64,000 nt of DNA from Candidatus Latescibacterota bacterium (GCA_965208835.1 OZ242358.1:1184001-1248000); one strand, 5' to 3'. Shown: positions 7,052-56,049, counted from the stretch's first letter. The notes: generated by a model from the letters alone, not told the origin. Numbers and translations are program-made.

Positions 7052-7057
7052 TCAAGT

Positions 7058-13423: not shown

Positions 13424-13452
13424 TTGCATGACGGATGGAATGGTCTTAACAT
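13424..13452 (+). promoter_or_regulatory. Sigma70-type promoter of paralog 3
   Basis: TTGCAT-N17-TAACAT; same arrangement before paralogs 4-6. Confidence 0.7.
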
Positions 13453-13558
13453 GCGCGTCTGCAAGATTCGGTCCGTAGCGACAGTCTCATTTCTCAGAGC
13501 GAGGACAACCAGCCGCATTCACGCTAGAGAGCTTGTCTTTACGTGAGGGAGAACCGTC

Positions 13559-15403: not shown

Positions 15404-15435
15404 CGCCAGAAGGTCAGGCGGGAAACCCTCTCCTT

Positions 15436-15501
15436 AGAACCCGTCCGGAAACACCCGATAGGCCTTGATTTCAAGGCCATAGGGGTTCTCAGACGGGTTC
15501 T
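15436..15501 (+). repeat. Conserved hairpin after paralog 3
   Basis: AGAACCCGT...GGCCTTGA-tt-TCAAGGCC...ACGGGTTCT; 32 bp after the stop. Confidence 0.75.
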
Positions 15502-15629
15502 ATTCGAATCAACCGAAGACCTGCTCCGGTCCAGAATACGACATAAGTAACAGGCAATCAACACGTTAAAGAAATCGTGGCCCGACGAGAAGGCAATAAT
15601 AACAAGGCGATCGTCGGCGGTTTTTTTAT

Positions 15630-15658
15630 TTGCATGCCGGGCAGAATTCCTTTAACAT
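15630..15658 (+). promoter_or_regulatory. Sigma70-type promoter of paralog 4
   Basis: TTGCAT-N17-TAACAT. Confidence 0.7.
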
Positions 15659-15763
15659 GCCAACTTGGGCGCACGGTCCGAAGCGTTTACCCGATATCTC
15701 AAAAAGAGGACAACCAGTAGTTGCCACGTCAGTGAGCGATTTTTCTCGAGAGGGAGATCCGTT

Positions 15764-17572: not shown

Positions 17573-17604
17573 CGCCAGTCATCGAAGCAGAACGTGATAG
17601 TTTG

Positions 17605-17671
17605 AGAACCCGTTTGGAAACGCCCCATATAGCCTTGAGTACGAGGCTTGCGGTGTTTACGGACGGGTTCT
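17605..17671 (+). repeat. Conserved hairpin after paralog 4
   Basis: AGAACCCGT...ACGGGTTCT; 32 bp after the stop. Confidence 0.75.
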
Positions 17672-17805
17672 TCCTTTTGGGGTGTGAAGGCGGACGATCG
17701 TACCGAAAACCTTTAGTTGCGGCAACGGGTCAAGGGCCGCCAGGCGGTCATGCCGTCCCGATCGTGGACAAAGACGCAAAGACGCAAGGGATCGTGACAT
17801 TTTCG

Positions 17806-17834
17806 TTGCATAAAGAGTCGAACCCACTTAATTT
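17806..17834 (+). promoter_or_regulatory. Sigma70-type promoter of paralog 5
   Basis: TTGCAT-N17-TAATTT. Confidence 0.65.
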
Positions 17835-17938
17835 ACACATTCGTGCGATTCGGTCCCAGGCGACAGCCTCATATCACAGAGAGGGTAGGCAGCCGCAGAT
17901 ACGCTACTGAGCCCGGCTCTCCAGGAGGGAGAACCGTC

Positions 17939-19789: not shown

Positions 19790-19943
19790 TGTCCTGTCCC
19801 AAAAATATCTCACCATTCGGTCGCCGATTCATCCCGTCTCGCTGCGTTGCCTTCGCTCGCCGACCTTACGCAGGTCGGTGGCGCCTTGCGAGCCGGGCGA
19901 CTCGACGGCCGAATTCAGGCAACCTATTTCTGGGACAGAACAG
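19789..19943 (+). mobile_element. MITE-like repeat family B, copy 1
   Basis: 155 bp, TIRs ATGTCCTGTCCC...GGGACAGAACAG, TA duplicated (19787-88 and 19944-45). Homologous to 36802-36963 and 45667-45828. Confidence 0.88.
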
Positions 19944-19978
19944 TAGCGCCACACGGTAAGGCAGGAAGGGTTTTTCTG

Positions 19979-20044
19979 AGAACCCGTCCGGAAACACCCG
20001 AATAGCGTTGAACACGAGGGTTGCGGGTTCTTCGGGCGGGTTCT
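19979..20044 (+). repeat. Conserved hairpin after paralog 5
   Basis: AGAACCCGTCCG...CGGGCGGGTTCT; 32 bp after the displaced TAG at 19944-19946. Confidence 0.75.
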
Positions 20045-20169
20045 CTTCGATTCAACCGAATACCTCCGTCGGCTCAGGACACTAGGTAGGACGTATTCAA
20101 CACGCAGAAGAAAGCCCCGCCCGAATTGAAGGCATTGATTGCAAACTGATCGCAGAAAGTCTTTTTAAT

Positions 20170-20198
20170 TTGCATAACCGGTGAATTTTAATTAATAT
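20170..20198 (+). promoter_or_regulatory. Sigma70-type promoter of paralog 6
   Basis: TTGCAT-N17-TAATAT. Confidence 0.7.
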
Positions 20199-20304
20199 CC
20201 CCGTTCGTATGATCGGTCCCGGGCGGTGGGCCGATGTTTCAGAGAGAAGAAAATCAGCCGTGGTCGCCGTTGCGGCCTTGTCTTTAACGGGAGGGAGAAC
20301 TGAT

Positions 20305-22169
20305 ATGATAAAGTTTCGAACACTGTTCGCGCAGGCAAACGTGAATCCGGTTGTCGGTCTGCTCGTTCTGGCCGTCGTCTTGTCATTCGTACGTCCGGCC
20401 GTGGCAGTTTGTCCGCTTCCCCCGGGCGTGACGGCCCCCGACGACCCCGCTGTGACCGCGCAGCAGGTGGTAGACGGCAGCGCCACCCTCAAGGAGTTTT
20501 CTCTGGCAGTAAGAGAGCGGTCCAGAGAATACGCCAAGGGGGCCGCGGCCACGGAACAAGCCGTATATATCGGATGCATCATAAGGCTGGACGATGGGAT
20601 CTGGCGTTCGGGTTCCACCTACATCGTGAGCCTGACGCCTGACGGCAGGATATACATTCACGCGAAGGACATGTCGTTGACGGGCAGGTTGCTAAACCCG
20701 GTGGTTTATGGAGCGATCCTTTCAGCGCTGGGCGTATCCCTATCTGATCTGGCGAATCTGGCGTCTCCCGATCCTGCGACTGCCGCACAGGCTTTCGGCG
20801 CTGTCATGGGCACATTGGCGCAGGAACCTGACGGCGCGTTCGATGCGACCGGTCCTGTTCCGGGTCTATCGCCAGGTATACCGGGCGCTTCGGGCCATGC
20901 CGCCGTCTATATCGAGCCCAATGTAGGGGGGGCTCCGATTGTAATGCTCATGGGTTTCGATCTCAATGAATCTCACCTGGTCCCATTAGCGATGAAGTCA
21001 TCGATTACGGCGACCCGGCCGTCACTGCCAGGGACGTGGTGGATCGCGAATCCCTGAAGGCCTTTGTTACCCAGGCTGGAAATTACTTTCTTGAACTTCA
21101 GAATTCCGGGGATTTCGCCGCTATTGCGAAAGCCAGGATCGCCTTGCGGGATCCGAACGGCCCGTGGAGACACGGTTCCGTGTACCTCTACGTTCTGGAT
21201 CTTGTCAGCAACATCATCATATTTCACGCGGCGTTCCCTGACAGATACGAGTATCGTCCTCTGATACCGACCGTCACCGACGCCGTGACAGGCGAGTTCA
21301 TCCTGCCGCAGGTCATCGAGGCGGCGAAGGGCAGCCCTGATGGCGGCTTCGTGGAGTATTACTTCGACGATCCCACCGACGACACCGACAGCGCCGATAT
21401 CCCCAAGGTGGGATACGCCCGTGAGTTTGCCGCTGAAATTCGGCGGCCGGACGGAAGCACAATCCCGGCCGACTTCATCGTCGGTTCGGGCTTCTACGGG
21501 CGCGCGGGCGAGGTTGCCACGACGGATCCCAGCACGGTCGTGGAGGCCACCGTGCAGGGTGACGCGGTAGAGGGGTTGGACGTGGCATTTTCCCGCGCCA
21601 TTGCCGGGCGCGGGTCCGATTATGCCTGGAGCGCCGTCACCGATCCTGCCGGCCTGTTCTCCCTGACCATCTCCAGCGCGGATGGCGTGAGTGGTTACTT
21701 TCGGGCCCGGGCCACCAACGCCGATGGCGAGGTCGTGGGCCGTTGGAGCAGCATACCCCTGAATGAAGGCCGCCGCCAGGTTCTGGAACTGACGTTGGGC
21801 GGCAACGCACGGGTCGTAGGTGTCGAAGCCCTGGCCTCATCCAGGTCTGAGGCCGCCGCCAAGCCGGCGTTTGCGGTCGAGGCCGTGCCGGAAGCCAGCG
21901 GTCTGGCGCCCAATTCGCCGAACCCATTCAACAGCGCCACGCTGATCACCTACCATCTGTCCGGCGCGGGTCCTGTGAAGCTGGTGATCTACAATGTGTT
22001 GGGCCAGCCCGTACGGACGCTTGTGGATGAGTCCCGTGCGGCGGGCACGTATAAGGTCAAATGGGATGCGCGCGACGAGGGTGGCGCGTTACTGTCGACA
22101 GGTGTGTATATCGCCCATCTGAGCTATCCCGGCGGTGTGCAGTCGCAACGGCTGCTGTACCTCAAGTAG
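20305..22169 (+). pseudogene. Secreted tandem-Cache protein, paralog 6, frameshifted (or sequencing error)
   Basis: ORFs 20209-21057 and 21036-22169 join if one base is added at GTCCCATT (20980-20987), restoring HLVPISDEVIDYGDPAVTARDVVDRES. Confidence 0.8.
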
Positions 22170-36368: not shown

Positions 36369-36764
36369 ATGCGAATGGCGATAGGTCTTGTTGTCCTGAT
36401 CGTATTGGCCGGGTGCGGGAGAAATCCGAAAGGATTGCAGGCCGAAGAACTGTCGAACATGCTGTCGATAACGAACCTGTCCGCGCAACCGGTGTACAAT
36501 CAGGCTGCGCCGCCGCTGATTGTCGCGGTGCGGATCGACGCGGACGTGGTGCACGTTGGGGACGTGCCGATCGAAGAGCCGTTTGTGCTGACGTGGCGGC
36601 TGGTGGACGATCAGAACGATACCGTGGGGCAGACGTCGAGACGACTCGAGGGAAATATGGAGCCGGGCGACGTCAGGCGCGTGGCGTTGACCGTGGAGTT
36701 CGAGGCCCGGGAAAGTGTCGCAGGACTCAGGAACGTGGCGACGTTTGATCCCGTATCCGGTTAG
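36369..36764 (+). CDS. Small lipoprotein of unknown function
   Basis: Signal peptide with LAGC lipobox; stop TAG is part of the repeat C1 target duplication. Confidence 0.65.
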   Translation: MRMAIGLVVLIVLAGCGRNPKGLQAEELSNMLSITNLSAQPVYNQAAPPLIVAVRIDADVVHVGDVPIEEPFVLTWRLVDDQNDTVGQTSRRLEGNMEPGDVRRVALTVEFEARESVAGLRNVATFDPVSG

Positions 36765-37088
36765 CAGTCCGTTGAGAAAGTCGCTCTGCAGGCGAGGCAT
36801 GGTGTCCCGTCCCGGAAAAATGTCACCATTCATCCGCCGATTCATCCCGTCTGGCGGCGTTGCCTTCGCTCGGCGACCACGGACAGGTCTCCTTGCTCAG
36901 GCGCCTTGCCAGCCGGCCGACTCGGCGGTCGAATTTCGGCAATCTATTTCCGGGACAGAACACTTGCCATTGTGGTTGAAGACAAGGCGCGTGAACGAGT
37001 CCCATCCGTCGATTCGGCGAGGGAGCGCAACGCAGTATTTCGTCCGCCAGGGCCGGCCGCAGCCCGGATGGACTTTTTCAACGGGCTG
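36765..37088. mobile_element. MITE-like repeat family C, copy 1 (interrupted by a family B element)
   Basis: TIRs CAGTCCGTTGAGAAAG...CTTTTTCAACGGGCTG, TTAG/TTAG duplication. Without the B insert it matches the reverse complement of 47461-47620. Confidence 0.88.
36802..36963 (+). mobile_element. MITE-like repeat family B, copy 2 (nested)
   Basis: 162 bp, GTGTCCCGTCCC...GGGACAGAACAC. Confidence 0.88.
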
Positions 37089-37206
37089 TTAGGCCAGAAT
37101 TGCCTTGATTGCGGGTTCCGGATGTGGTATTTTCCGATCCGTCCTTACACACAATGATTCCGACTCCGGCGACGTTGCCGGGTTTTTTTCGCCTGGAACT
37201 GAACGA

Positions 37207-45854: not shown

Positions 45855-46622
45855 TCATTCCGATCGGTTCTCGGAATCACCGTCGATACGCGCCCGAAGG
45901 TCCACGCTGCTGGACAGAATGTGCTCCTCCATGGCCCGCTGCGCGGCTTCGGCGTCGCGTTTCCGGATGGCTCGCACGATTTTTACGTGTTCTTCCACCG
46001 ACATCCGGGCCCGCACCTCCGCCGTATGGGTTGCGGATTCCTCCAGGCTGGCCCCGATCCACTCCTGAAGGTAGTTACGTATCATTACAAGGAGGTTGCG
46101 GAGGATCGAATTCTGGGTTGCCCGGGCAATGGCCAGATGGAACTGCACGTCGAACTCAAGGAATTCGCCGGGCCGGTTCAGAGATGCCTCGATTCCACGG
46201 ATCGTTCGGTCGAATTCCCGGAGGTCGGCTTCCGTGGCGCGCCCGGCGGCAAGGAATGCATTACGTGATTCCAGCATAAGCCGCGTTTCCACGAGGTCCG
46301 TGACTTCCTTCGGATCCAGCAGCAGGCCCCAGCTCAGGGATTTCTCCAGGTATCGGCCAGTATTGTCGCTGACGAACGTACCCTCACCCACCCGGGGTTC
46401 CAGGATGCCCATCACGGAGAGTGTGCGGAGGGCTTCCCTGAGGGAGGTCCTGCCGACCCCGAACTGTTTGCACAGGCTTCGTTCCGGCGGCAGCCGATCG
46501 CCCGGTTTCAGCACGTCCCGGGAGATCAGGTCGATGATCTGGCCGACGATTTCGTCGCTCAGCGACGTGCGCCTGACGGGCGTCATCTGCTCGAGTGCCG
46601 GGGCCTTCGGTTTTCGAGTCAC
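45855..46622 (-). CDS. GntR/FadR family transcriptional regulator
   Basis: LKPGDRLPPER.L...FGVGRTSLREAL wHTH; FCD domain FHLAIARAT.N, EH..I. Confidence 0.93.
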   Translation of the reverse strand: MTRKPKAPALEQMTPVRRTSLSDEIVGQIIDLISRDVLKPGDRLPPERSLCKQFGVGRTSLREALRTLSVMGILEPRVGEGTFVSDNTGRYLEKSLSWGLLLDPKEVTDLVETRLMLESRNAFLAAGRATEADLREFDRTIRGIEASLNRPGEFLEFDVQFHLAIARATQNSILRNLLVMIRNYLQEWIGASLEESATHTAEVRARMSVEEHVKIVRAIRKRDAEAAQRAMEEHILSSSVDLRARIDGDSENRSE

Positions 46623-46723: not shown

Positions 46724-46738
46724 AATTGGTCTGACCAT
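46724..46738. promoter_or_regulatory. FadR/PdhR-type operator palindrome
   Basis: AATTGGTCTGACCAT contains TGGTC-N-GACCA, between the divergent regulator and the methyl-transfer cluster. Confidence 0.7.
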
Positions 46739-46806: not shown

Positions 46807-47436
46807 ATGGGCCAAACCGTCGATATCGGAACGCGCATCGAACTGGTGCCCATGGATCCGCATTTTCATGAAATCACGATCGGCCTCTACCGGCAGGAGT
46901 ACGACGGGGCTCCCGTGTATTGCGTACATACGTACAGCGGAAGAGCAGGAGCCGACCAACGGATCGCATTCGTCTCCAACGCGATGGTGGTTCTGGGCGG
47001 AATGGCGCAGACACCCGACGGGCTGCTTCGATTTCCGTGCGGAGAAGCCCACGAACTGGCCTGCCGGCGGGTCTTCCTCGAGGCGTGCAAGCTGGATTCC
47101 GGCGGCGAGCTGAAAGCCCGTCCACTGACGATTGTCGACAGGAAGTCCGGATTGAACATCACGGTGTCCCGTGCGGGCAGCGGCGAGTACCGCGTCGAAG
47201 CCGCAGGGGAGGGAAAGGACGGCGCGCGGAGAATCGCGGCAATCGCGGGCGGGTTGGCCAAGCTCGGAGAAATGCAGTCTCGAAGCCCGGATACGGTCGC
47301 ATTTTCGTGCGGACACTACCACGACGCTGTTGTGGGACTGCTTCTGGTTCGGGCCCCGAACGTCCGGGCAGCGGTTCGCGAACAGGAGACGTCGGGTGCC
47401 CGCGGTGTCCTGGCTGCGCCCAGCCAGCAGCGGTAG
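46807..47436 (+). CDS. Hypothetical protein with two F-x-C-G-x-x-H motifs
   Basis: ATG after GGAGG; motifs FPCGEAH and FSCGHYH; first gene of the cluster. Confidence 0.7.
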   Translation: MGQTVDIGTRIELVPMDPHFHEITIGLYRQEYDGAPVYCVHTYSGRAGADQRIAFVSNAMVVLGGMAQTPDGLLRFPCGEAHELACRRVFLEACKLDSGGELKARPLTIVDRKSGLNITVSRAGSGEYRVEAAGEGKDGARRIAAIAGGLAKLGEMQSRSPDTVAFSCGHYHDAVVGLLLVRAPNVRAAVREQETSGARGVLAAPSQQR

Positions 47437-47460
47437 TGCCGGCGCGTAAACGATCTATAA

Positions 47461-47620
47461 CAGCCCGTTGAAAAAGCCCATCCGGGCTACGGCCGGCCCT
47501 TGCGGTCGAAATACTGCGTTGCGCGCTCTCGCCGAATCGCAGGATGGGACTCGGTTGCGCGCCTTGTCTTCGGCCACAATGGCTCGGCCTCGCCTGCAGA
47601 GCGACTTTGTCAACGGACTG
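47461..47620. mobile_element. MITE-like repeat family C, copy 2
   Basis: 160 bp, CAGCCCGTTGAAAAAG...CTTTGTCAACGGACTG; degenerate flanks ATAA/TCAA. Confidence 0.85.
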
Positions 47621-47640
47621 TCAAACAGGAGAGTGAGAAT

Positions 47641-48687
47641 ATGGCGACTCAACCGGTGGGTCCGATGACCGGCCGCGAGCGCGTTCTGGCGGCGCTGAAC
47701 CGGGAGCCGGTGGACCGTACGCCCGTGTGCAATCCGACGTCGGTGGCGACGGTGGAGTTGATGGATCTGGTGGACGCGCCCTTTCCGCAGGCGAACCGCG
47801 ACCCGGAACTGATGGCCCGCCTTGCCGCAACGGGGCATACGGAGCTGGGGTTCGATTCGGTCATGCCGGTGTTCACGATTATACAGGAGTCGTCCGCATT
47901 GGGCTGCAAGATCCAGTGGGAGCAGAAAGACAACTGGCCCACCGTAAGGATGCGCGAGCCCATCTGGGAAGACGTGGACGACATTCAGATTCCACCTGAC
48001 CTGCTCACGCACCAGGATACGAAGTGCGTGCTGGATGCGATCCGGATTCTGAAGAAGGAATACGGAGATGACGTGGCCGTTATCGGCAAGACAATGGGCC
48101 CATGGTCGCTGGGATATCACTGCTTCGGCGTGGAGCCCTTTCTGCTCATGTCTCTGGACGACCCGGACAAGACCAAGGAATGTCTTGACAGAATGAAAGA
48201 CGTGACCGTGGACTTTGGAGTGGCGCAGATCGAGGCGGGCGCGGATGCGCTCACGGTGCCCGATCACGCGACGGGCGACCTGGTGAGCGGGGAATACTAC
48301 AAGCGGTATCTGCGCGACCTGCATATCGAGTTCGTGGAGCGGATCCCGATTCCGCTGATTCTGCACATCTGCGGGCGGACGGTGGACCGGATGGAGTACA
48401 TCGCGCAGACGGGAATGTCCGCATTCCATTACGACTCGAAAAACGAGCCGGGCGAATCCATGGCGGCGGTGAAGGAGCGGATCTCGCTGGTGGGCAACAT
48501 CAATAATCCGGAGACGCTGTTTTCAAAAGGGCCGGAGGCGGTCCGCCAGGAGGTCTTCAGGAACCTGGACGCAGGCGTGCATCTCGTCGGTCCGGAGTGC
48601 GCGATACCGCTGCAGACGTCAATCGAGAACCTGAAGGAGATTCCCGGAGCAGTCCGGGACTGGCACCGGGAGATGCAGGCGGGATAA
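47641..48687 (+). CDS. MtaA/CmuA family (UROD-fold) Zn-dependent corrinoid methyltransferase
   Basis: MTGRER..AAL...PVDR.PV; Zn ligands LHICG (HxC) and GPEC; LVGNI. Confidence 0.88.
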   Translation: MATQPVGPMTGRERVLAALNREPVDRTPVCNPTSVATVELMDLVDAPFPQANRDPELMARLAATGHTELGFDSVMPVFTIIQESSALGCKIQWEQKDNWPTVRMREPIWEDVDDIQIPPDLLTHQDTKCVLDAIRILKKEYGDDVAVIGKTMGPWSLGYHCFGVEPFLLMSLDDPDKTKECLDRMKDVTVDFGVAQIEAGADALTVPDHATGDLVSGEYYKRYLRDLHIEFVERIPIPLILHICGRTVDRMEYIAQTGMSAFHYDSKNEPGESMAAVKERISLVGNINNPETLFSKGPEAVRQEVFRNLDAGVHLVGPECAIPLQTSIENLKEIPGAVRDWHREMQAG

Positions 48688-48702
48688 GGGGGCAGGTGAG
48701 AA

Positions 48703-49473
48703 ATGGCGGAAATCACCGACATCGTAAACGAATTCATCCGCGACGAAATCGAGGAGTTCCTCGAGCGGGAAGACGAACGGGAGCGGGCGATCGCCACGTT
48801 CGCCGAGGTTACTCCCGATATGCAGGCGATTGCCGCGGCCCTGATCGACGGCGACCATCACGAAGTGGACGCGTTGACCAAAGCCGCTCTGGATGCCGGC
48901 ACCGGTGCGCTGGAGGTGATGGACGACGGATTGATCGCGGGAATGGGCATTGTGGGGATCAAATTCCGCGAGAACTTCATCTTCGTTCCGGAAGTGCTGG
49001 CCTGCGCACGTGCGATGAAGGCCGGTATGGCCTATATCGAACCCATTCTGTCCGCGTCGGGCATCGAGCCGATCGGAACGGTAATCATGGGAACTGTAAA
49101 AGGCGACCTGCACGACATCGGAAAGAACCTCTGCATCATGATGCTTCGCGGCGCGGGGTTTGTCGTTCACGATCTGGGGGTGGACACGTCGGAGGACGAA
49201 TTCATGGATGCCGTGGAGGAACACGGCGCACCGCTGCTGGGGATGTCGGCGCTGCTGACGACCACAATGCCCAATATGGGCAAGACGATCGAGGCCTTCA
49301 TCGACGCGGATCTGCGTGAAGACGTGAAGATCATGGTGGGGGGCGCGCCCGTTACGCAGGAATTCGCCGACGATATGGGCGCGGACGGGTACGGCAAAGA
49401 CGCGATGGCGTGCGTGACCCTGGCCAAAGACCTGCTCGACGAGATGAAGGCAGAGACCAACCTGAATGTGTGA
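48703..49473 (+). CDS. Corrinoid (B12-binding) protein
   Basis: Cap domain GLIAGM..VG..F....FVPEV; GDLHDIGKN (DxHxxG), MSALLTTT, VGGAPV. Confidence 0.95.
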   Translation: MAEITDIVNEFIRDEIEEFLEREDERERAIATFAEVTPDMQAIAAALIDGDHHEVDALTKAALDAGTGALEVMDDGLIAGMGIVGIKFRENFIFVPEVLACARAMKAGMAYIEPILSASGIEPIGTVIMGTVKGDLHDIGKNLCIMMLRGAGFVVHDLGVDTSEDEFMDAVEEHGAPLLGMSALLTTTMPNMGKTIEAFIDADLREDVKIMVGGAPVTQEFADDMGADGYGKDAMACVTLAKDLLDEMKAETNLNV

Positions 49474-49479
49474 GCCTAA

Positions 49480-49670
49480 CCTCGATTCGTACGGTTTCGT
49501 GGACGTTAAATCGAATTCATGCAAATTGATAGCGGCGATTAAACTGCGGATTACCAGGATACACCAGGGCACTGGACGTGAACGGAAACAATGTCCCTCC
49601 GGACGACCTTTTCGCCCCGTTTCGGTAGGCTTCGTCGCGTTACCGCGTTGCCGTTTTTTTCGAATTGAGG
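49480..49670. mobile_element. MITE-like repeat family A, copy 3
   Basis: 191 bp, CCTCGATTCG...CGAATTGAGG; flanks CTAA/CTTA. Confidence 0.85.
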
Positions 49671-49676
49671 CTTACC

Positions 49677-49952
49677 GTGCAGAAGATTGACAAAGAGGAA
49701 TATCAGAAGCGTCTGGACAGGATCACGGAACTGTTCGCCGGAATGATCGCCCATGCCGATGAACTTTCAACCGTCCGGTGCCCCTACAAGAACCGTTTCG
49801 ACGAGTGTACCGCCAGGTTCGGCTGCAGAAATCAGCGGAGGCCGCGTCCGGGCGGAACGCTGCTGATGTGCGGTGGAGACGACAAGCTGGACTACCGCGG
49901 CGCGTGGGAAACGGAGACAGAACTTGGCGCATTCGTCGGGAGCGACGAATAG
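49677..49952 (+). CDS. Small Cys-rich hypothetical protein
   Basis: GTG start 6 nt after GAGG; RCPYKN...CTA.FGC.NQ...C; ends 5 nt before the next gene. Confidence 0.65.
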   Translation: MQKIDKEEYQKRLDRITELFAGMIAHADELSTVRCPYKNRFDECTARFGCRNQRRPRPGGTLLMCGGDDKLDYRGAWETETELGAFVGSDE

Positions 49953-49957
49953 TACGC

Positions 49958-51580
49958 ATGGGTACCATATCTCACGACGGAAAGCGGAGGGCCCTGACAG
50001 CCGGAAAGACGGTTTTCGACTATGCGGATGAGCTGGCGGTCCAGGTGCCCACTTCCTGCGGACGCACCGGACACTGTCACGAGTGCGTGGTTGAAATCGG
50101 GTGCGGGATGGAAGCATTGCGGCCACGGAACGACGTGGAGTCGTTCCTGCGGGAGAATTACCGTCTGGCTTGTCTGGCGGTGGTTGAAAACGACGAAGCC
50201 GATATCGAGTTCTCGCCGTTGAGGCGCAAGCCCAAGATTCTCTCACATTCCCTGGAAAGACCGCTGGATCCGGACCCCCTGGTCACGCGCCTGGGGGACG
50301 TTGTTTATTATGACGGCGTCGCCGTCGACAGGTATCGCGGTCACCTTTACGGAATCGCGGTCGATCTGGGCACGACGACGGTGGTCATGGACCTGGTGGA
50401 TCTGGCCACGGGCGAGAGCGTCCACGTGAGTTCGTTCGAGAACCCGCAGCGTTTCGGCGGCAGCGACGTGATGAATCGCATTTCCTACGACGGGGAGTTT
50501 CACGGCGAACTTCAGAAGGCGGCCGTAAACGCGATCAATCACGAAATCCTGGAACTGGGAAGACGATTCGGGTTTGTCCGCCAGGAGATCTACGAGATCG
50601 TCGTGGCGGGAAACTCCACGATGCGGGACATCTTCTTCAAGCTGGACGTTCAGAGCATCGGCCAGAGACCGTACAAATCCCGCGTGGAGCACGCCTGTCT
50701 GGAGGGCGAACGGGAGACGACTTCCCTGCTGGAGGGTTCCAGGCGGCTGGGGCTGCGCGTCAATCCCAGGGCGAGGGTCTACGGGATGCCGCTGATCGCC
50801 AGCCATGTGGGGGCCGATACCGCGGCGGACCTCGTGGCGACGGACCTGACGTCTCAGGATGGCGTGGTGATGCTGGTGGACGTGGGGACCAATACCGAGG
50901 TGGTGGTGCGAAGCCCCGACCGGCTGCTCACCGCCTCCTGCCCGGCGGGGCCCGCGTTCGAGGGCGGGCTGGTCCGGTACGGGATGCCCGGACATGAAGG
51001 CGCTATCGAGTCGATCCGTCTCGAAAACGGCGGGTTCCAATACCGGACCATCGGAAACGTCGAGCCGGAGGGAATGTGCGGGTCCGGGTTGATCGATCTG
51101 CTGGCGGAACTCCGGCGGCACGATCTCATGGCGCCCAAAGGGATGTTTGCCGACCGGTCCTTTGAAATCCCGGTTGTCCCGGATTACGGGATCACGCTGT
51201 CCCGCGAAGACGCCAGCAACCTTGCCCAGGCCAAGGCCGCGAATTTCTGCGGACAGTTCATCCTGATGCGACACCTCGGGGTTGGGCCTGAAGATATCGA
51301 CACGCTATACCTTGCCGGAGGTTTCGCGAATTACGTGAACGTCCGGAACGCGGTCGAGATCGGATTTCTGGCGCCGGTCGAAGAAGAACGCGTGGTTAAG
51401 ACGGGAAATGCGGCGGTCCAGGGGGCGCGGGAGGTCCTGCTGTCGCGCGGGAAACGGGCGTCCGTCGAGGCGCTGGTGAAAGAGATCGAACACGTCGAAC
51501 TCGAAACGACTCCGGACTTCTTCGAGGTGTTCGTGGAAGGCTGCCAGTTCAAGCCGATGCCCTTTTCAAAAGCCGGGTAG
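49958..51580 (+). CDS. ASKHA-domain reductive activator of corrinoid proteins (RamA/RACo, DUF4445-like) with N-terminal 2Fe-2S domain
   Basis: SCGRTGHCHEC...RLAC, DLGTTT, NPQ..G.DV..RI, DVGTNTE, AGPAFEG, CGSG, LAGGF. Confidence 0.92.
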   Translation: MGTISHDGKRRALTAGKTVFDYADELAVQVPTSCGRTGHCHECVVEIGCGMEALRPRNDVESFLRENYRLACLAVVENDEADIEFSPLRRKPKILSHSLERPLDPDPLVTRLGDVVYYDGVAVDRYRGHLYGIAVDLGTTTVVMDLVDLATGESVHVSSFENPQRFGGSDVMNRISYDGEFHGELQKAAVNAINHEILELGRRFGFVRQEIYEIVVAGNSTMRDIFFKLDVQSIGQRPYKSRVEHACLEGERETTSLLEGSRRLGLRVNPRARVYGMPLIASHVGADTAADLVATDLTSQDGVVMLVDVGTNTEVVVRSPDRLLTASCPAGPAFEGGLVRYGMPGHEGAIESIRLENGGFQYRTIGNVEPEGMCGSGLIDLLAELRRHDLMAPKGMFADRSFEIPVVPDYGITLSREDASNLAQAKAANFCGQFILMRHLGVGPEDIDTLYLAGGFANYVNVRNAVEIGFLAPVEEERVVKTGNAAVQGAREVLLSRGKRASVEALVKEIEHVELETTPDFFEVFVEGCQFKPMPFSKAG

Positions 51581-51703
51581 ACGCAAGACGTAAGACGGGA
51601 GAAGAAATCCTCGCCGGGTATGTTATACCTTCTTGCCTCCGGCATGAGAGGAAGCCTTTCAAGGCAGGTCATCTCTACCCTCTTCCGTCTCCCGTCTTAC
51701 CGC
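51575..51703 (+). repeat. Intergenic repeat family D, copy 1 (heptamer-flanked hairpin)
   Basis: Aligns end to end with the reverse complement of 59941-60068. Purine-rich 7-mers on the left pair with pyrimidine-rich 7-mers on the right (GTAAGACGGGAGA/TCTCCCGTCTTAC). Confidence 0.75.
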
Positions 51704-51754
51704 TTCTAAGGGGCCGTGTGGCAAGGTCCCCCGCAAAAACACGAGTGAGTTCGC

Positions 51755-53356
51755 ATGGCGGCAACTTTAGGAAAGTCAGATCCAGCCGGCGTCGATGGGC
51801 AGAGACAGTCCCTGCGCCATTTGCTCGAGGAAACGGACGCGTTCGTCGTCTGCGTGGAACTGGTCAATTCCCGGGGCGTGATCACCGAACGCCGCGGGCG
51901 ACGCGTCCTCGACCTCGCGCGGGCGCTGGCCGACCACCCCGGCGTACACGCACTGAGCATCACGGACAATCCCGGCGGGAACGCCACAAACAGCCCGGAC
52001 GCGATGGGAATGGACCTGCTGGGCCGGGGCAAGGAAGTCATCATTCACCTGTCGTGCAAGGACTGGAACCGGAATGCGCTGCTCAGCCGGGGCTGGGAGC
52101 TGGCAAGCGAAGGATTCGAAAACGTGCTTGCGCTCTCCGGCGACTACCCCGCAACCGGATATCACGGGCAGGCGGGCGCCGTGTTCGATACGGATTCGGT
52201 CGGCCTCCTGAAGATGCTCTCAGAGATGAATTCAGGCATGCGGCTCGAAGGCGTCAGAGGCGATCAGGTCCTGAAGCCTACACGTTTCTTCCTCGGCGCG
52301 GTGGTAAACAACCACAAGCGATACGAACGCGAGGTGATGCCGCAGTACTTCAAGCTGGAAAAAAAGATCCGGAACGGCGCGGAGTTCATCATCAACCAGA
52401 TCGGGTACGACACCCGCAAGCAGCACGAACTGTTGAAGTACATGGCCCGTTGCGGCCTCCGCACACCGGCGATTGCAAACGTGTACGTGCTGAGCCCCGC
52501 CTCGGCCAGGTTCTTCCACGGAGGAAATATCCCCGGCGTGATCGTAACCGACGAGTTGCTTGAACTCACGGCGAAGCACGCCCGCTCCCGCGACAAGGGC
52601 AAGGCTTTCTTTCTGGAGTTCGCCGCGAAGCAGTGCGCAATAGCCCGGGGGTTGGGGTACCGCGGGGTGTACCTTGGGGGGCACCTGAAGTTCGAGGACT
52701 ATGCGCGGATCCTGGACATCTGCGGCGGCTACGGAGACGCGGACTGGAAAGACTTCGCTTCCGAGATTTGCTTCCAGCAGCCGGAAGAGTTCTTCTTTTT
52801 TGAACCAGACAGGGAAACGGGGCTGAGTTCGGACGAGGTCAACCGCGCGTATCGTCATTCGAAGCAACCCGAGGTGTTGCGGGCGGCCAGAAGCCGCGTA
52901 TCCACGGCCTACAAGATCAACCGCTTCGTGCACGAACAGGTCTTCGAGAAGGATCGTCCGGCCTTTCGCATCGGCAGAAGGTTCTTCGAGGCCGTCGACC
53001 GCGCCGGAAGCAGGGTGCGCAGGGCTTTGCACGGCGCCGAGCAGGCGGTGAAGATTCCGTGCTTCGATTGCCGGGACTGCGGCGATTGTTCGCTTCCGGA
53101 TATCGCGTTCCTCTGTCCCGAGTCGCAGTGCGTCAAGAATCAGCGAAACGGCCCCTGCGGCGGGACCCGCCGGGGACTGTGCGAAGTGGGGGACAAGGAA
53201 TGTATCTGGTCGCTGGCCTACGAACGCCTCAAGGCGTACGGCGAGGAAGAGACGATGCTGGACGGGCCGGTGGTCTTCAGAAACGGCGCCCTCAAAGGCA
53301 CCAGCGCCTGGGCGAACGCGTTTCTGGACCGGGACCACCACGCGCGCAAGGAGTGA
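51755..53356 (+). CDS. Methylene-THF reductase (MetF-like) fused to a C-terminal Cys-rich MetV-like domain
   Basis: SITDNPGG, HLSCKD.NR, LALSGDYP; C-terminal CRDCGDC...CPESQC.KNQRNGPCGG...CEV...CIW. Confidence 0.85.
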   Translation: MAATLGKSDPAGVDGQRQSLRHLLEETDAFVVCVELVNSRGVITERRGRRVLDLARALADHPGVHALSITDNPGGNATNSPDAMGMDLLGRGKEVIIHLSCKDWNRNALLSRGWELASEGFENVLALSGDYPATGYHGQAGAVFDTDSVGLLKMLSEMNSGMRLEGVRGDQVLKPTRFFLGAVVNNHKRYEREVMPQYFKLEKKIRNGAEFIINQIGYDTRKQHELLKYMARCGLRTPAIANVYVLSPASARFFHGGNIPGVIVTDELLELTAKHARSRDKGKAFFLEFAAKQCAIARGLGYRGVYLGGHLKFEDYARILDICGGYGDADWKDFASEICFQQPEEFFFFEPDRETGLSSDEVNRAYRHSKQPEVLRAARSRVSTAYKINRFVHEQVFEKDRPAFRIGRRFFEAVDRAGSRVRRALHGAEQAVKIPCFDCRDCGDCSLPDIAFLCPESQCVKNQRNGPCGGTRRGLCEVGDKECIWSLAYERLKAYGEEETMLDGPVVFRNGALKGTSAWANAFLDRDHHARKE

Positions 53357-53366
53357 GGGGAATACA

Positions 53367-54413
53367 ATGAAACTGGATGGACGGGACGGCGAGTTTATCG
53401 TCATCGGTGAAAACATCCACACGACACGGATTGTCCTGAGAAAGGGACGACTCGTCGTGAAGAACCCCGATGGGTTGGAGGCGGTCCGCTATTACGACAC
53501 CCGCAAGAAGCGGCGCTTCCTGACGATTCCCGACGATTTCAAGCGGACGCAGGACTATGAAGAAGGGCGCGTCAAGTACGTCAAGATCGCGGTGCAGGCG
53601 GCGATGTCCGGCCTCGCGCCACAGGCGGAAGACGGGCAGGCGTACCTGCACCGGATGATTCAGCGCCAGGTGGAAGCGGGAGCGGACTACCTGGATCTGA
53701 ACGTGGACGAGGTCTCACTGCGACTGGACGAACAGAAGAAGGCCATGCGATGGCTGGTGGGCGCCGTTCAGGAGGTAAGCCCCGTTCCGATATCCGTTGA
53801 CTCCTCCAATGTGGAGACCATTGGAGAAGGACTCGGGGCCTGCAACGGCGGGACTGGACGGCCGCTGCTGAACTCGGCCTCGCTGGAACGCCTGGAGGCG
53901 CTGGACCTGGCCTTGAGGTTCAACGCCAGGGTTGTCGTGACGGCCGCCGGCGAGAGCGGAATGCCCCAGGACGCGGAGGAGCGGGTCGAGAACGCGTCGC
54001 GGATGGTGGACGCGGCGCTGTCGAGAGGGATCGCGATCGAGGATATTTTCGTGGATGCCCTGGTCTTTCCGATATCGGTGGACGGCGGTTTCGGCAACCA
54101 TTGCTTCGAGGCCATTCGCAGGCTTCGAGCGGGATTCGGCCCAGGGATTCACGTCACGGGCGGATTCAGCAACGTTTCGTTCGGGCTGCCGTGCCGGCGC
54201 CTGATCAACGACGTGTTCACGATTCTGGCCGTCGAGGCCGGAGCCGACAGCGGGATCGTCGACCCGGTCACCAGCAGCCCGCAGCGTATATTCACCCTGG
54301 ACCGGGATACGGAACCGTACCGGCTCGCGGAAGACATGCTTCTGGGCAGGGATCGCATGTGCAAGGCCTTTCTGCGTGCGTATCGGAAGGGTGCGCTGGA
54401 CGCTTACCGTTAA
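53367..54413 (+). CDS. Pterin-binding methyl-THF:corrinoid methyltransferase (AcsE/MetH folate-domain-like)
   Basis: IVIGENI, GADYLDLN, SVDSS, LLNS, GGFSNVSFGLP.R..IN; TAA stop lies in the A4 target duplication. Confidence 0.88.
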   Translation: MKLDGRDGEFIVIGENIHTTRIVLRKGRLVVKNPDGLEAVRYYDTRKKRRFLTIPDDFKRTQDYEEGRVKYVKIAVQAAMSGLAPQAEDGQAYLHRMIQRQVEAGADYLDLNVDEVSLRLDEQKKAMRWLVGAVQEVSPVPISVDSSNVETIGEGLGACNGGTGRPLLNSASLERLEALDLALRFNARVVVTAAGESGMPQDAEERVENASRMVDAALSRGIAIEDIFVDALVFPISVDGGFGNHCFEAIRRLRAGFGPGIHVTGGFSNVSFGLPCRRLINDVFTILAVEAGADSGIVDPVTSSPQRIFTLDRDTEPYRLAEDMLLGRDRMCKAFLRAYRKGALDAYR

Positions 54414-54603
54414 CCTTGATTCGTAAGTTTTCGCGGACGTTAATTCGAATAAGTGCAAGTTAATAAAGGCGATTAGAAGGCTGATTACCGGGATAAACCA
54501 GGTCACTGGACGTGAACGGAAGAAATGCCCTTCCGGACGACGTTTGCTCCCCGTTTCGGAGGGCTTTATCACGACGCCCGGTCGCTGTTTTTTCGAATTG
54601 GGG
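54414..54603. mobile_element. MITE-like repeat family A, copy 4
   Basis: 190 bp, CCTTGATTCG...CGAATTGGGG; perfect TTAA/TTAA duplication. Confidence 0.88.
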
Positions 54604-54633
54604 TTAATTCATTGAGGAGGAATCGGGGAGGAG

Positions 54634-55713
54634 ATGAAGACATTTCTCGATCGGATGGAAGACGCCCGGCCTATGGTTTACGACGGGGGATTCGGTTCGG
54701 AGTTGTTCAAGGGGCGCATCGAACTGACGAACAGCGCGCTCGCGAATGAACTGCATCCCGCTGCAGTGGTCGATATCCATGCCGCCTATATTGAAGCGGG
54801 GACCGACGTCATCGGCACGAACACATTCGTGGCTTCGCCACTGCACCTGGAAATGGCTGGGAAAGCCGCGAACGACGCCGGAAAGATTGCCAGGCTGGCT
54901 GTGGAACACGCGAAAACGGCGGTCGAAGTGAGCGAAAGGGAGGTCTATATCGCGGGGTCCGTCGGACCGTCTCCCGGGGCTATCGAGTCGGACGCGGGCG
55001 ATACCGACTTCGGCATCGCGGACGTGAAGGTAAGGGATGCGCACGAGCAGGTCATCCACGCGCTCGCGCAGGCCGGGGTGGACCTGATCTGCATCGAGAC
55101 CATGTTTTCCGCAAAGGAGGCCGCCATTGCGGCTGACGTGGCCCGGAAGACCGGATTGCCCGTCGCGATCAACCTCACGTGCAAGTACACGAAGGACCGG
55201 AAAACCGGCGAGGTGATCTACCGGACGGACTGGGGGCATTCGCCGGGCGATCTTCTGGATTTCCTCGGTTCCGGCGAGTTTTCGGACGGTGACAATCTGC
55301 TGGAGCACGTAGGGATCGTCGGGATGAATTGCGGAGCGGAGACCCGGCGGGTGGAACATACGGGGATGGCTTACGCGATCAACGGAATCCGGCAGTTCAG
55401 AGACGCAATGGTGTCGCGGGGCGTCGAGGGGATCGGGCTGATGGCCTATCCCAACGCGGGGCTTCCGCAGCTGGAGCGAAAGACTGGACGGACGACGTAT
55501 TCTCAGACCGCCGCGGACATGGTGCAGTCCGTGCCCGAGTTGATTGACAGCGGCGCCGCCATCATCGGAGGCTGTTGCGGGACCGGACCGTCGCACATTC
55601 GGGCGTTCCACGGCGTGATGAACGGGGGTCAGGGAAAGACAGGGAGCGGCGGCAGGGGTCCCGGCATACACATCCGGCAAGACGATGGGAACGGCCGCGG
55701 GAAGAAGGGGTGA
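54634..55713 (+). CDS. Homocysteine S-methyltransferase (stand-alone MetH Hcy-binding domain-like)
   Basis: DGGFGSEL, H..YI.AG.D.I.TNTF, GMNCG, YPNAGLP, IGGCCGT.P.HI Zn ligands. Confidence 0.92.
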   Translation: MKTFLDRMEDARPMVYDGGFGSELFKGRIELTNSALANELHPAAVVDIHAAYIEAGTDVIGTNTFVASPLHLEMAGKAANDAGKIARLAVEHAKTAVEVSEREVYIAGSVGPSPGAIESDAGDTDFGIADVKVRDAHEQVIHALAQAGVDLICIETMFSAKEAAIAADVARKTGLPVAINLTCKYTKDRKTGEVIYRTDWGHSPGDLLDFLGSGEFSDGDNLLEHVGIVGMNCGAETRRVEHTGMAYAINGIRQFRDAMVSRGVEGIGLMAYPNAGLPQLERKTGRTTYSQTAADMVQSVPELIDSGAAIIGGCCGTGPSHIRAFHGVMNGGQGKTGSGGRGPGIHIRQDDGNGRGKKG

Positions 55714-55716
55714 ACG

Positions 55717-55989
55717 GTGGCCGAATACCAGGTGTTGTACTGGAAGGACATTCCCGCGCAGGTGCGGGTCTTCGACGGAAAGCGTCGCGTCGCCCGGCAG
55801 ATGCCCCCGGAATTCCAGGAGGCGATAGACCGGCGGGCGATGGCGGAGGGCCTGGCCGGAACGGACGCGTACCTGGCGCACTGGCACTGGAGCGAGCGGC
55901 GGGATCGTCCGGGCGACCCGCAGGCGGTCCTGCTGGCCGTTTCAGAAGAGCTTGAACGGACTTACGACGATCAGGGCGGTGAGGTATAA
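55717..55989 (+). CDS. Small 'Virulence_fact' (PF13769-like) domain protein
   Basis: YWKDIPAQV...FQEAIDRRAM..G..GTDAYLA.W motif; this domain is typically found near split methionine synthase/metF genes. Confidence 0.75.
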   Translation: MAEYQVLYWKDIPAQVRVFDGKRRVARQMPPEFQEAIDRRAMAEGLAGTDAYLAHWHWSERRDRPGDPQAVLLAVSEELERTYDDQGGEV

Positions 55990-56013: not shown

Positions 56014-56049
56014 AAAAGAAGGGAGCCGGATTTTCCGGCTCCCTTTTTT
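56014..56049. terminator. Bidirectional intrinsic terminator
   Basis: AAGGGAGCCGGA-ttt-TCCGGCTCCCTT with A and T tails, between convergent operons. Confidence 0.88.

Follow-up and report, generated by a model that had tools for sequence, protein, structure and literature searches.

A cobalamin-dependent methyl-transfer operon of the Mtg/split-MetH kind with an MtaA/CmuA-family enzyme and an unannotated partner as putative methyl entry module in a Latescibacterota bacterium

One GntR-controlled operon of a Candidatus Latescibacterota bacterium encodes a modular system for cobalamin-dependent methyl transfer to folate and methionine, of the Mtg or split-MetH kind. The new part of this system is its entry module, which consists of an enzyme of the MtaA/CmuA family (g2) and a previously unannotated protein (g1). 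In the reading that we favour, with a probability of about 0.5, g1 and g2 form the entrance to an Mtg-type core that moves the methyl group of a thioether to tetrahydrofolate (THF) and to methionine.

The operon lies in a stretch of 64,000 nucleotides, hereafter the window. Pfam and NCBIfam scans place all nine genes, together spanning 46807-55989, on the + strand; gene content and conserved motifs are direct observations, and so is the linkage of g1 to g2. The features are the following.

45855..46622, - strand: divergent transcriptional regulator of the GntR/FCD family (Pfam GntR + FCD)
46727..46737, no strand: perfect palindrome TGGTCTGACCA, putative GntR operator, 80 nt 5' of g1
46807..47436, + strand: g1, uncharacterised 209-aa protein, predicted partner subunit of g2 (linkage, complex prediction)
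47641..48687, + strand: g2, MtaA/CmuA-family UROD-fold zinc methyltransferase, 348 aa (Pfam, NCBIfam, PDB match)
48703..49473, + strand: g3, methyltransferase-cognate corrinoid protein, MtgC/MttC-like (Pfam B12-binding_2 + B12-binding)
49677..49952, + strand: small 4-Cys protein, 91 aa (tblastn conservation, invariant Cys)
49958..51580, + strand: g5, RACo/RamA-type ATP-dependent reductive activator of corrinoid protein (Fer2 + Raco_middle + RACo_C_ter)
51755..53356, + strand: g6, fusion of MTHFR (MetF-like) and a MetV-like Cys-rich domain (PF02219 + PF12225, DUF5981)
53367..54413, + strand: g7, methyl-corrinoid:tetrahydrofolate methyltransferase, MtgD / MT II-like (Pterin_bind)
54634..55713, + strand: g8, homocysteine S-methyltransferase-family zinc enzyme, MtgE-like (PF02574, S-methyl_trans, E 1e-52)
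55717..55989, + strand: g9, small PF13769 protein (PF13769, E 4e-21)
56019..56045, no strand: hairpin of 12 pairs (8 G-C) between convergent genes

An earlier note on this DNA had described a nine-gene cluster, and all nine genes are indeed there, on one strand, but two gene models had to be changed. The small Cys gene is the one at 49677-49952; the ORF 49466-49690 was rejected for this role, being unconserved and running through a dispersed intergenic repeat. For the MtaA-like gene, 47641 replaces the start of the mechanical ORF at 47500, since its database relatives are 348 aa long. The single terminator that had been proposed was found again as the strong 12-bp hairpin at 56019-56045, which likely acts bidirectionally and closes the operon against the convergent gene.

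Conservation was assessed in 80 loci, the best 80 of 543 UROD relatives fetched, against which the window proteins were compared by tblastn. The loci were chosen with the UROD protein as bait, and the counts for the carrier, the pterin enzyme and MetF-MetV apply to g2-bearing loci only. Among the 80 loci, g1 occurs in 78, the corrinoid protein in 32, RACo in 31, MetF-MetV in 29, the pterin methyltransferase in 28, the PF13769 protein in 23 and the homocysteine methyltransferase in 16, while 30 have a GntR homologue in the equivalent divergent position. The genes g6 and g7, which adjoin each other in the window, are both present in 28 loci. In the remaining 48 loci, almost all titled Poribacteria, no cluster gene beyond g1 and g2 was found in the locus DNA covered; g1 is paired with g2 in all of them except L076 (cut upstream) and L080, and in two annotated cases housekeeping genes surround the pair. 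The earlier note had made its interpretation depend on conservation of the MtaA-like gene with the cluster, and the neighbourhoods bear it out: g1-g2 is present in all cluster-type loci. An Ldh_2-family gene lies within the Poribacteria clusters. The Ldh_2 family includes sulfolactate dehydrogenase.

The palindrome TGGTCTGACCA is likely the GntR operator. It is found, as such or with one base changed, 5' of g1 in loci L001-L012, ten of which have it near -80, and a related palindrome, GGTTGTCnGACAACC, is present in L025, L026, L030 and L058; overall, the operator pattern occurs 27 times in 1.5 Mb of locus DNA. GntR/FCD regulators with a conserved operator are typical for catabolic operons under carboxylate induction. 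In L013 a formate-THF ligase gene adjoins the GntR gene. In the loci neighbourhoods examined, genes for a substrate, a transporter or sulfur handling are not conserved beside the cluster; the genomic context therefore names no thioether, which counts against the favoured reading.

The carrier g3 has its best PDB matches in 1Y80 (2e-60) and 7XCN MttC (2e-40), while MetH is matched with only about 1e-26. His137 of its DxHxxG motif is unchanged in 32/32 sequences, and its top NCBIfam model is the glycine-betaine corrinoid protein MtgC_2, with 192.6 bits, under the cut-off. For g7 the best PDB match is the pterin-binding protein 4O0Q of Desulfitobacterium (1e-37), followed by MeTr (2e-27) and MetH (5e-20). 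The entry 4O0Q is deposited as 'Dihydropteroate synthase DHPS'; we take it to be the MT II of an O-demethylase. By these matches g3 and g7 are of the methylotrophic type and not fragments of MetH, a point in favour of the interpretation given in the earlier note.

The activator g5 has the domain set of a RACo protein, with 2Fe-2S ferredoxin, middle and ASKHA C-terminal domains, and scores 281 bits, under the cut-off, with the AcsV-like NCBIfam model. The frame of the small 4-Cys protein that precedes it was found by tblastn in 31 loci (53-96% identity), with C35, C44, C50 and C65 unchanged in 32/32 sequences. In Poribacteria it is fused to RACo as an N-terminal domain (L013:11948-13846), and the ESM Atlas holds stand-alone clusters of 80-92 aa. 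In g6, which has no sequence match in the PDB, eight Cys between residues 439 and 483 are unchanged in 30/30 sequences.

The homocysteine methyltransferase g8 keeps its zinc triad Cys233/Cys314/Cys315 in 16/16 sequences. It had been counted among the core parts, but it is present in just 16 of the 32 cluster-type loci, at three different positions, and is a variable member of the cluster. The core companion of the pterin methyltransferase is instead g9, which in its 23 loci lies directly 3' of g7 wherever g8 is absent; in one database protein Pterin_bind and PF13769 are fused. The AF2 model of g9 (pLDDT 90.8) has no fold match in the PDB.

The assignment of g2 to the MtaA/CmuA family follows from several comparisons. 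It matches Pfam URO-D PF01208 with E 1e-67 (228.9 bits) and exceeds the subfamily cut-offs of the NCBIfam models TIGR01463 mtaA_cmuA (255 bits, cut-off 235.4) and NF004889 (266.7 bits, cut-off 244), while it stays under the equivalog cut-offs for MtaA (NF040654, 245.7 vs 400) and MtbA (NF041608, 204.4 vs 600). Residues 8-337 match MtaA in PDB 4AY7 with E 1e-53, with the HxC...C motif aligned, and the zinc ligands H242, C244 and C320 are unchanged in 81/81 sequences. From these similarities g2 would transfer methyl groups to or from a corrinoid. CmuA binds zinc too, and the zinc site of g2 is therefore compatible with methyl halides as substrates. Within the UroD superfamily, the available text of PMC10418091 assigns His-Cys-Cys ligands to S/Se-methyltransferases, while O-demethylases have the Cys ligands replaced. 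The motif, read with that account, places the zinc site in the S/Se or halide type, and this upholds the earlier proposal of sulfur or halide methyl chemistry.

Relatives of g2 near its length are only 342-362 aa long among the best 120 (search window 217-692 aa), and identity is 82-97% across Latescibacterota, Poribacteria, Gemmatimonadota and Acidobacteriota, phyla that are typical of marine sponge microbiomes.

The most tightly linked partner of g2 is g1, which is thus not the bystander that the first gene had been taken for: it lies upstream of the UROD gene on the same strand, and mostly adjacent to it, in 78/80 loci, and the linkage is kept in loci that carry no other part of the cluster. 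Pfam assigns it to no family, not even at E 10, and its database relatives bear only "hypothetical" names. Its AF2 model (pLDDT 86.7, pTM 0.82), without fold match in the PDB, consists of two similar strand-helix halves and a tail that is disordered yet conserved. Three runs of complex prediction for g1-g2 gave 0.86, 0.00 and 0.85, i.e., a median of 0.85, and passed the comparison with 3 controls, the best of which gave 0.00. The mark used is reached by 58/80 solved complexes and 2/110 mismatched pairs, counts that are only a rough guide to the g1-g2 score because own alignments were used for it. Contact agreement among the runs was at least 0%, and partner pLDDT at least 77; the run at 0.00 counts against the entry reading. 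The predicted interface joins residues 38-47 and 324-332 of g2, the latter beside the zinc ligand C320, with residues 2-26 and 42-46 of g1. The models thus suggest that g1 binds g2 physically and docks beside the zinc site.

In the favoured mechanism, the substrate-specific module is a complex of g1 with g2, a zinc His-Cys-Cys enzyme not of the MttB type, and it would transfer the methyl group of a small methyl-thioether, of the methanethiol, dimethylsulfide or methylmercaptopropionate type, to the Co(I) form of g3. The corrinoid of g3 would be the methyl carrier, and cobalt oxidised to Co(II) would be returned to Co(I) by g5 and the 4-Cys protein at the expense of ATP. Methyl groups would then be exchanged with tetrahydrofolate by g7 and its companion g9 and interconverted between methyl-THF and methylene-THF by g6, so that they are oxidised into the C1 pool, while in a side branch g8 would pass them to homocysteine, giving methionine. 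We infer that methyl flows from substrate to THF and that the substrate of g1-g2 is an S-methyl compound, with a methyl-thioether favoured and a methyl halide as the main rival.

Consider now that methyl groups leave through g1-g2 instead. In this case g6 would reduce methylene-THF, g7 would load g3 in the manner of methionine synthesis, and g1-g2 would methylate a thiol other than homocysteine, with g8 acting in parallel on homocysteine. The acceptors proposed are a cofactor-like thiol, 3-mercaptopropionate, sulfide or selenide, and the purpose biosynthesis or detoxification. MtaA transfers methyl from methyl-corrinoid to a thiol, in the direction opposite to the proposed entry, and g2 is closest to MtaA; the cluster also encodes every step needed to get from methylene-THF to methyl-corrinoid, and the Ldh_2-family gene in Poribacteria clusters, with sulfolactate dehydrogenase in its family, would fit. 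The Ruegeria MtgD is, moreover, described as bidirectional in the available part of PMC12478193. We nevertheless consider methyl exit unlikely: thiol-cofactor biosynthesis genes were not found conserved nearby, the GntR/FCD control and the dedicated MetF-type enzyme resemble the catabolic cmu layout as generally known and the mtg layout as far as it is set out in PMC12478193, and the 82-97% identity of g1-g2 across phyla is not better accounted for. When the donor is taken to be a methyl halide, g1-g2 and g3 become a split CmuA acting on CH3Cl, CH3Br or CH3I, with g7 corresponding to CmuB and g6 to MetF2. The score of g2 above the joint MtaA/CmuA cut-off, and the parallel between cmu and the present set of UROD methyltransferase, corrinoid, pterin methyltransferase and MetF, speak for this; so do the placing of roseobacter MtgC near CmuA (PMC12478193, available text) and the dehalogenation of chloromethane by UroD-superfamily enzymes (PMC13222342, available text), where the uncatalysed rate of methyl-Co(III) formation from methyl halides is also given as appreciable. 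This route is rather improbable, as the cluster is without folD or purU, g2 and g3 are separate genes while CmuA is one protein with both domains, and a carboxylate-type GntR/FCD regulator would, on general knowledge, be odd as a halomethane sensor; also, a tblastn search with g2 in 72,556 plasmid records gave nothing above 27% identity, CmuA being compared by description only.

That the window holds no MttB or MtaB, as the earlier note had stated, is confirmed for 54 ORFs (43 hand-picked of at least 150 aa and 11 cluster ORFs). Other parts of the genome may encode MttB-type donor enzymes, metH or metE, and the cluster could then be a hub shared with other donors, in which an Mtg-type core serves MttB-family enzymes and g1-g2 is one of several modules that dock on g3. 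Such an arrangement, compatible with the favoured reading and not exclusive of it, is suggested by the MtgC_2 match of g3, by Ruegeria, where the mtgB genes lie apart from mtgC and mtgD and a genome can have as many as seven PF06253 paralogues (available text of PMC12478193), and by non-pyrrolysine mttB transcripts in a sponge microbiome (available text of PMC9999580). It is quite improbable in view of the absence of PF06253 (MtgB) from the 54 window ORFs, 71 ORFs of six loci and 26 family representatives. Finally, g3, g5, g7 and g8 would suffice to reproduce the split methionine synthase of Phaeobacter, as described in the available text of PMC5764234, and g1 and g2 could be unrelated neighbours outside the corrinoid pathway. 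Half of the cluster-type loci are, however, without g8 but none is without g1-g2, neither g3 nor g7 is of MetH type, and g2 keeps an intact corrinoid-methyltransferase zinc site, which makes an ordinary split MetH highly improbable.

Decades ago, physiological work pointed to a methyl-thioether:THF methyltransferase, which in 2019 still counted among the unidentified enzymes (PMC6548844, available text); no later identification came up in a literature search. It is conceivable, though doubtful, that g1-g2 is the gene pair of such a cobalamin-dependent route from methyl-thioethers (DMS or methanethiol type) to tetrahydrofolate in non-methanogenic, probably aerobic bacteria. In this reading the pair, which appears to have spread among the four phyla by gene transfer, would connect sulfur compounds derived from DMSP with methionine and with the C1 pool of folate. 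Of the earlier note, the observation itself is confirmed and the interpretation partly supported.

The cluster has points in common with several known systems. With MtaA, MtbA, MtsA and MtpA of methanogens it shares the UROD fold, the His-Cys-Cys zinc site, a small corrinoid protein and an ATP-dependent activator; unlike MtaA and MtbA, g2 is bacterial and below the equivalog cut-offs, and the pathway ends in THF instead of coenzyme M. We know of no methanogen MtaA-type system with an obligate extra subunit like g1. The CmuA/CmuB/MetF2 pathway of non-methanogenic bacteria combines a UROD-type methyltransferase, a corrinoid, a pterin methyltransferase and a dedicated MetF that oxidises methyl-THF, and the path of the methyl group from UROD methyltransferase via corrinoid and pterin enzyme to MetF is also the one proposed for the present cluster. 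CmuA, however, fuses the methyltransferase and corrinoid domains that are here separate in g2 and g3, and to our knowledge cmu clusters contain neither g1 nor PF13769 nor RACo. Type 1 mlp clusters, in the available text of PMC10418091, have two or three Mlp paralogues, at least an Mlp2 and an Mlp3 among them, are without THF methyltransferase and belong to obligate anaerobes, in contrast to the one UROD gene, the Pterin_bind/THF branch and the g1 partner found here. The O-demethylase and Cdm systems of acetogens and Desulfitobacterium (MT I, CP, MT II, AE) share the four-component logic, and g7 is nearest to 4O0Q, but their MT I has carboxylate ligands or no zinc (PMC10418091 and PMC13222342, available texts), whereas g2 keeps both Cys.

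The cluster is also like Mtg of Ruegeria pomeroyi and the split MetH of Phaeobacter inhibens, which, in the available texts of PMC12478193 and PMC5764234, have a separate corrinoid protein, a bidirectional pterin methyltransferase, a homocysteine methyltransferase, a RamA/RACo-type activator, a dedicated MetF paralogue beside the pterin enzyme, and one carrier common to a catabolic donor and methionine synthesis. The modular Mtg/split-MetH of Ruegeria (2025) serves both glycine-betaine demethylation and methionine synthesis, with MtgBCDE, MetF2 and RamA in dual use and with metF2, which adjoins mtgD, induced for methyl oxidation (PMC12478193, available text). The present cluster has the corresponding stand-alone DxHxxG corrinoid protein, pterin enzyme with adjacent MetF, zinc-triad MtgE-like g8 and RACo activator. 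The idea of dual use is already known, because g3, g5, g6, g7 and g8 match the Ruegeria system. The earlier note had spoken of an undescribed methyl-donor entry route that feeds methionine and methyl-THF oxidation; the scheme of carrier sharing is published for aerobic marine bacteria (PMC12478193, available text), and therefore only the entry enzyme is undescribed, and new. In Ruegeria, according to the same text, the donor enzyme is MtgB (PF06253, MttB family) and the system has DUF1638 as a companion of the activator, while here MtaA/CmuA-family g2 with g1 would take the place of the former, and none of the cluster proteins matched DUF1638 (PF07796), with g1 and the 4-Cys protein scanned to E 10. 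In the present cluster MetF is fused to a MetV-like Cys domain, RACo has an extra 4-Cys module, and PF13769 belongs to the core; unlike Ruegeria and Phaeobacter, it has all genes in one operon.

The methyl-transfer genes of the window, where G+C is about 60%, stand in a row of nine, all on the + strand, from 46807 to 55989, with a divergent regulatory gene on one side and a hairpin on the other. Except where another basis is given, the assignments below are from Pfam and NCBIfam.

45855-46622, divergent from the operon: GntR/FCD regulator, by family match
46807-47436, + strand: g1, a protein without family in Pfam or NCBIfam
47641-48687, + strand: g2, a URO-D fold protein above the curated cut-offs of the MtaA/CmuA subfamily
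48703-49473, + strand: g3, corrinoid protein
49677-49952, + strand: small Cys gene, recognised by conservation in this frame
49958-51580, + strand: g5, RACo-type activator
51755-53356, + strand: g6, an MTHFR domain fused to a MetV-like domain
53367-54413, + strand: g7, pterin-binding methyltransferase
54634-55713, + strand: g8, homocysteine S-methyltransferase family
55717-55989, + strand: g9, PF13769 protein
56019-56045: hairpin of 12 pairs, between g9 and a convergent gene

The open reading frame of g2, when delimited mechanically, starts at 47500, yet the database relatives of g2 are 348 aa long. Upstream of g1, at a distance of 80 nt, is a palindrome of GntR type, TGGTCTGACCA, which recurs in L001-L012, the first twelve of the related loci discussed below, while a related palindrome, GGTTGTCnGACAACC, is found in four Acidobacteriota loci. 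No Rfam family matches anywhere in the window at its gathering threshold, and no riboswitch was seen.

The earlier note had listed nine genes of these kinds, and that list stands, except that the mechanical ORF at 49466-49690 is not the small Cys protein. That frame has no homologue at the corresponding place in related loci, its translation is junk-like and it lies on a dispersed repeat. The real gene, at 49677-49952, is kept in 31 loci with 53-96% identity in its own frame, the overlapping frame of the RACo ORF giving far weaker matches, and its product has four invariant Cys. In Poribacteria it is fused to RACo, as the N-terminal domain of one 632-aa protein (L013:11948-13846). RACo of the window therefore begins at the ATG at 49958. 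The 600-aa RACo ORF overlaps the small gene, and its first 60 residues are out of frame.

The dispersed repeat is intergenic, about 195 nt long, and its copies are 77-83% identical to each other. They lie on the + strand of the window at 2475-2675, 6858-7055, 49474-49677 and 54411-54634, and on the - strand of two other loci (L006:7947-8146, L009:4798-4974). Two copies are thus inside the operon, 3' of the corrinoid gene and 3' of the pterin gene, and L001-L003 have none at matching positions. Its two ends, TTAATTCGAAT ... ATTCGAATTG, can pair in the manner of a MITE's inverted termini. Covariation among the predicted pairs is weak, at 5 of 45, and Rfam has no family for it. Another short repeat between genes, of about 165 nt and with about 90% identity between copies, is present at 47457-47630 and, on the - strand, at 36756-37091 of the window, and at L002:7856-8018 and L003:9748-9990. 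Because the first of these copies is inserted between g1 and g2, their gap is exceptionally long in the window, 204 nt against about 46 nt in L001. Elsewhere in the window, seven paralogous + strand genes follow each other at 9323-22169, with a weak dCache_2 match and a C-terminal FlgD_ig domain; two of them seem split (15665-16453 with 16541-17572, and 20209-21057 with 21036-22169).

The solved structure of Methanosarcina mazei MtaA (4AY7) can be aligned with g2 at an E value of 1e-53; the zinc ligands, HxC and C, fall in register, and all 81 of the 81 g2 sequences compared keep them. According to Kountz and Balskus (PMC10418091), a His-Cys-Cys set in the UroD superfamily marks S- or Se-methyltransferases, and O-demethylases swap out the Cys ligands. 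Since g2 scores below the NCBIfam equivalog cut-offs for MtaA and MtbA, it is an orthologue of neither; its placement relative to the characterised MtaA, MtsA, MtpA and CmuA rests on NCBIfam scores in place of a tree.

Database relatives of g2 number 2737 at E ≤ 0.001 among 8000 candidates scored, and the best 120 are 83-100% identical to it. When one genome per species was scanned with g2, 543 relatives were obtained, and the 80 best were taken with 10-kb flanks as loci L001-L080. By their titles these come from Latescibacterota, Poribacteria, Gemmatimonadota and Acidobacteriota (the last including Versatilivoraceae), phyla characteristic of the microbiomes of marine sponges. Closest is L001, from a chromosome of Latescibacterota, at 97% identity. 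The earlier note had proposed neighbourhood conservation as a check, and tblastn of the window proteins against the 80 loci bears it out: g1 accompanies g2 in 78 and the corrinoid protein does so in 32, with RACo in 31, GntR in 30, MetF-MetV in 29, the pterin methyltransferase in 28, PF13769 in 23 and the homocysteine methyltransferase in 16. As g2 was the bait, these counts show that the cluster frequently comes with g2; they do not bear on how regularly g2 comes with the cluster. Identity to the window is 82-97% for g2, 51-90% for g1, 73-98% for the corrinoid protein, 65-93% for RACo, 67-95% for MetF-MetV and 59-96% for the pterin enzyme. That g2 is nearly identical in four phyla suggests strong selection and lateral spread of the module.

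The 48 other loci have no further cluster gene in the available DNA, which in some ends early downstream; nearly all are titled Poribacteria, and one, L061, is titled 'uncultured bacterium' and nothing more. Even here g1 is kept with g2, except in L080 and in L076, whose sequence extends no more than 338 nt beyond the match on the upstream side. In all 78 loci the g1 homologue is an intact ORF of 209-219 aa. It is not always adjacent to g2, being 0.7-1.6 kb upstream in about ten Poribacteria loci and 8.7 kb away in L078. In the annotated loci L039 and L042 the pair stands amid housekeeping genes (serA-like, IMPDH); in the other cluster-less loci the flanks were grouped into families, and the neighbourhood family census contains no conserved transporter or sulfur gene.

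Some Poribacteria loci carry additional genes. A PhyH-family dioxygenase lies between the RACo and MetF-MetV genes in two clusters (L013:14548-15222, L017:13983-14780), and an Ldh_2-family dehydrogenase between PF13769 and the homocysteine methyltransferase in one (L017:18355-19416); both may be clues to the chemical nature of the substrate or product. Eight loci have g1 and g2 separated by a further ORF, of about 160 aa (L040, at 9369-9857 for example, L045, L048, L049, L051, L053, L062 and L065). Near or inside some clusters are an IS605 OrfB/Cas12f-like TnpB gene and a DDE transposase (L039:5075-6256, L013:16045-17055), consistent with mobility of the region.

The partner protein g1 has no Pfam match, even at an E value of 10, and no usable match in the ESM Atlas. 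Its 1223 database relatives include no named protein other than "hypothetical" among the 120 listed, and at 50% identity there are 276 representatives in 1.84 billion proteins, almost all of about 200-230 aa. Among the 150 representatives listed, P0203 alone runs into a URO-D fragment, and this apparent fusion is probably a read-through. The AF2 model is confident (pLDDT 86.7, pTM 0.82), with two similar strand-helix halves and a C-terminal tail that is disordered yet conserved; Foldseek finds no fold match for it in the PDB (best E 0.02, TM below 0.2). The predicted complex of g1 with g2 passed, with scores of 0.86, 0.00 and 0.85 (median 0.85) and 0.00 for the best of three controls, contact agreement being at least 0% and partner pLDDT at least 77. 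As many as 58 of 80 solved complexes attained this mark, as did 2 of 110 mismatched pairs, counts that are rough because the report's own alignments were used. In the predicted interface the N-terminal part of g1 (residues 2-26 and 42-46) faces residues 38-47 and 324-332 of g2, beside the zinc ligand C320. The model supports a putative physical binding of g1 to g2.

In the core, g3, judged by its PDB matches, resembles the Moorella protein 1Y80, MttC and MtmC more closely than MetH, and it carries the DxHxxG histidine. The nearest match of g7 is the Desulfitobacterium hafniense protein 4O0Q (1e-37), with MeTr (2e-27) and MetH (5e-20) further away. The MetV-like domain of g6 has eight invariant Cys. 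The zinc Cys triad is retained in g8, a gene that occupies three different places by lineage and is missing in half of the cluster loci. Where it is missing, as in L025, PF13769 lies directly 3' of the pterin gene, and one database protein is a fusion of Pterin_bind with PF13769; for these two reasons PF13769 is assigned to the pterin enzyme. Foldseek finds no fold match in the PDB for the g9 model (best E 0.8), and the literature found on PF13769 holds no account of this cluster.

These properties are best accommodated, with a probability of about 0.5, if g1-g2 is the methyltransferase that gives an Mtg-type system its substrate specificity. The pair would load the corrinoid protein, most probably from a methyl-thioether, and the methyl group would leave the corrinoid by THF oxidation and by methionine synthesis. 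Methyl entry is preferred because the core has a dedicated MetF-type enzyme, because the operon has a catabolic-style regulator and because, in L013, a formate-THF ligase gene adjoins the GntR gene; the reverse direction, with g1-g2 methylating a thiol, appears unlikely. Among substrates the main rival to a thioether is a methyl halide, which seems less likely still. A tblastn search of g2 against plasmids, in search of one bearing cmuA, gave no match above 27% identity. Aerobic bacteria have a cobalamin-dependent DMS methyltransferase that had still to be identified in 2019 (PMC6548844), and no later identification was found in the literature; the g1-g2 pair is a candidate for it, with low probability.

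Should the entry module function in the way suggested here, the modular B12 systems of non-methanogenic bacteria would reach beyond quaternary amines, the donors of MttB-type enzymes, to a second enzyme class, and g1 would be a new protein family, a subunit of an MtaA-like enzyme. The pair would also be a concrete candidate for a step that is missing from the turnover of organosulfur compounds or methyl halides, and these bacteria, already known to require cobalamin, would have one more use for it.

No description of the cluster in Poribacteria, Latescibacteria or sponge symbionts was found in the literature. Among known systems, the methionine synthase of Phaeobacter was shown by Price et al. 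(PMC5764234) to consist of three parts and to go with a RamA-like activator and DUF1638. In Ruegeria pomeroyi, as shown by Mausz et al. (PMC12478193), the corrinoid protein MtgC and the pterin enzyme MtgD are common to methionine synthesis via MtgE and glycine-betaine demethylation via the MttB-family MtgB, and MetF2, encoded beside mtgD, is induced to oxidise methyl-THF. Type 1 mlp clusters share His-Cys-Cys MtaA-like enzymes with the window but differ by several paralogues, the lack of a THF branch and an anaerobic host range (PMC10418091), and in Cdm and O-demethylase systems MT I is zinc-free or carboxylate-type (PMC13222342). Neither a PF06253 donor enzyme nor DUF1638 was found in the DNA scanned, which for PF06253 comprised 54 ORFs of the window, 71 ORFs of six loci and 26 family representatives, and for DUF1638 the cluster proteins. 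Further parts of the window cluster that may set it apart from Ruegeria and Phaeobacter are the MetV-like fusion, the 4-Cys module and PF13769. The earlier note had proposed an undescribed methyl-donor entry route feeding both methionine and methyl-THF oxidation; such a dual-use architecture is already published for Ruegeria, and the window cluster is this Mtg architecture packed into one operon. What sets it apart from Ruegeria is the donor side, where an MtaA-like enzyme with a new partner is present and no PF06253 enzyme was found.
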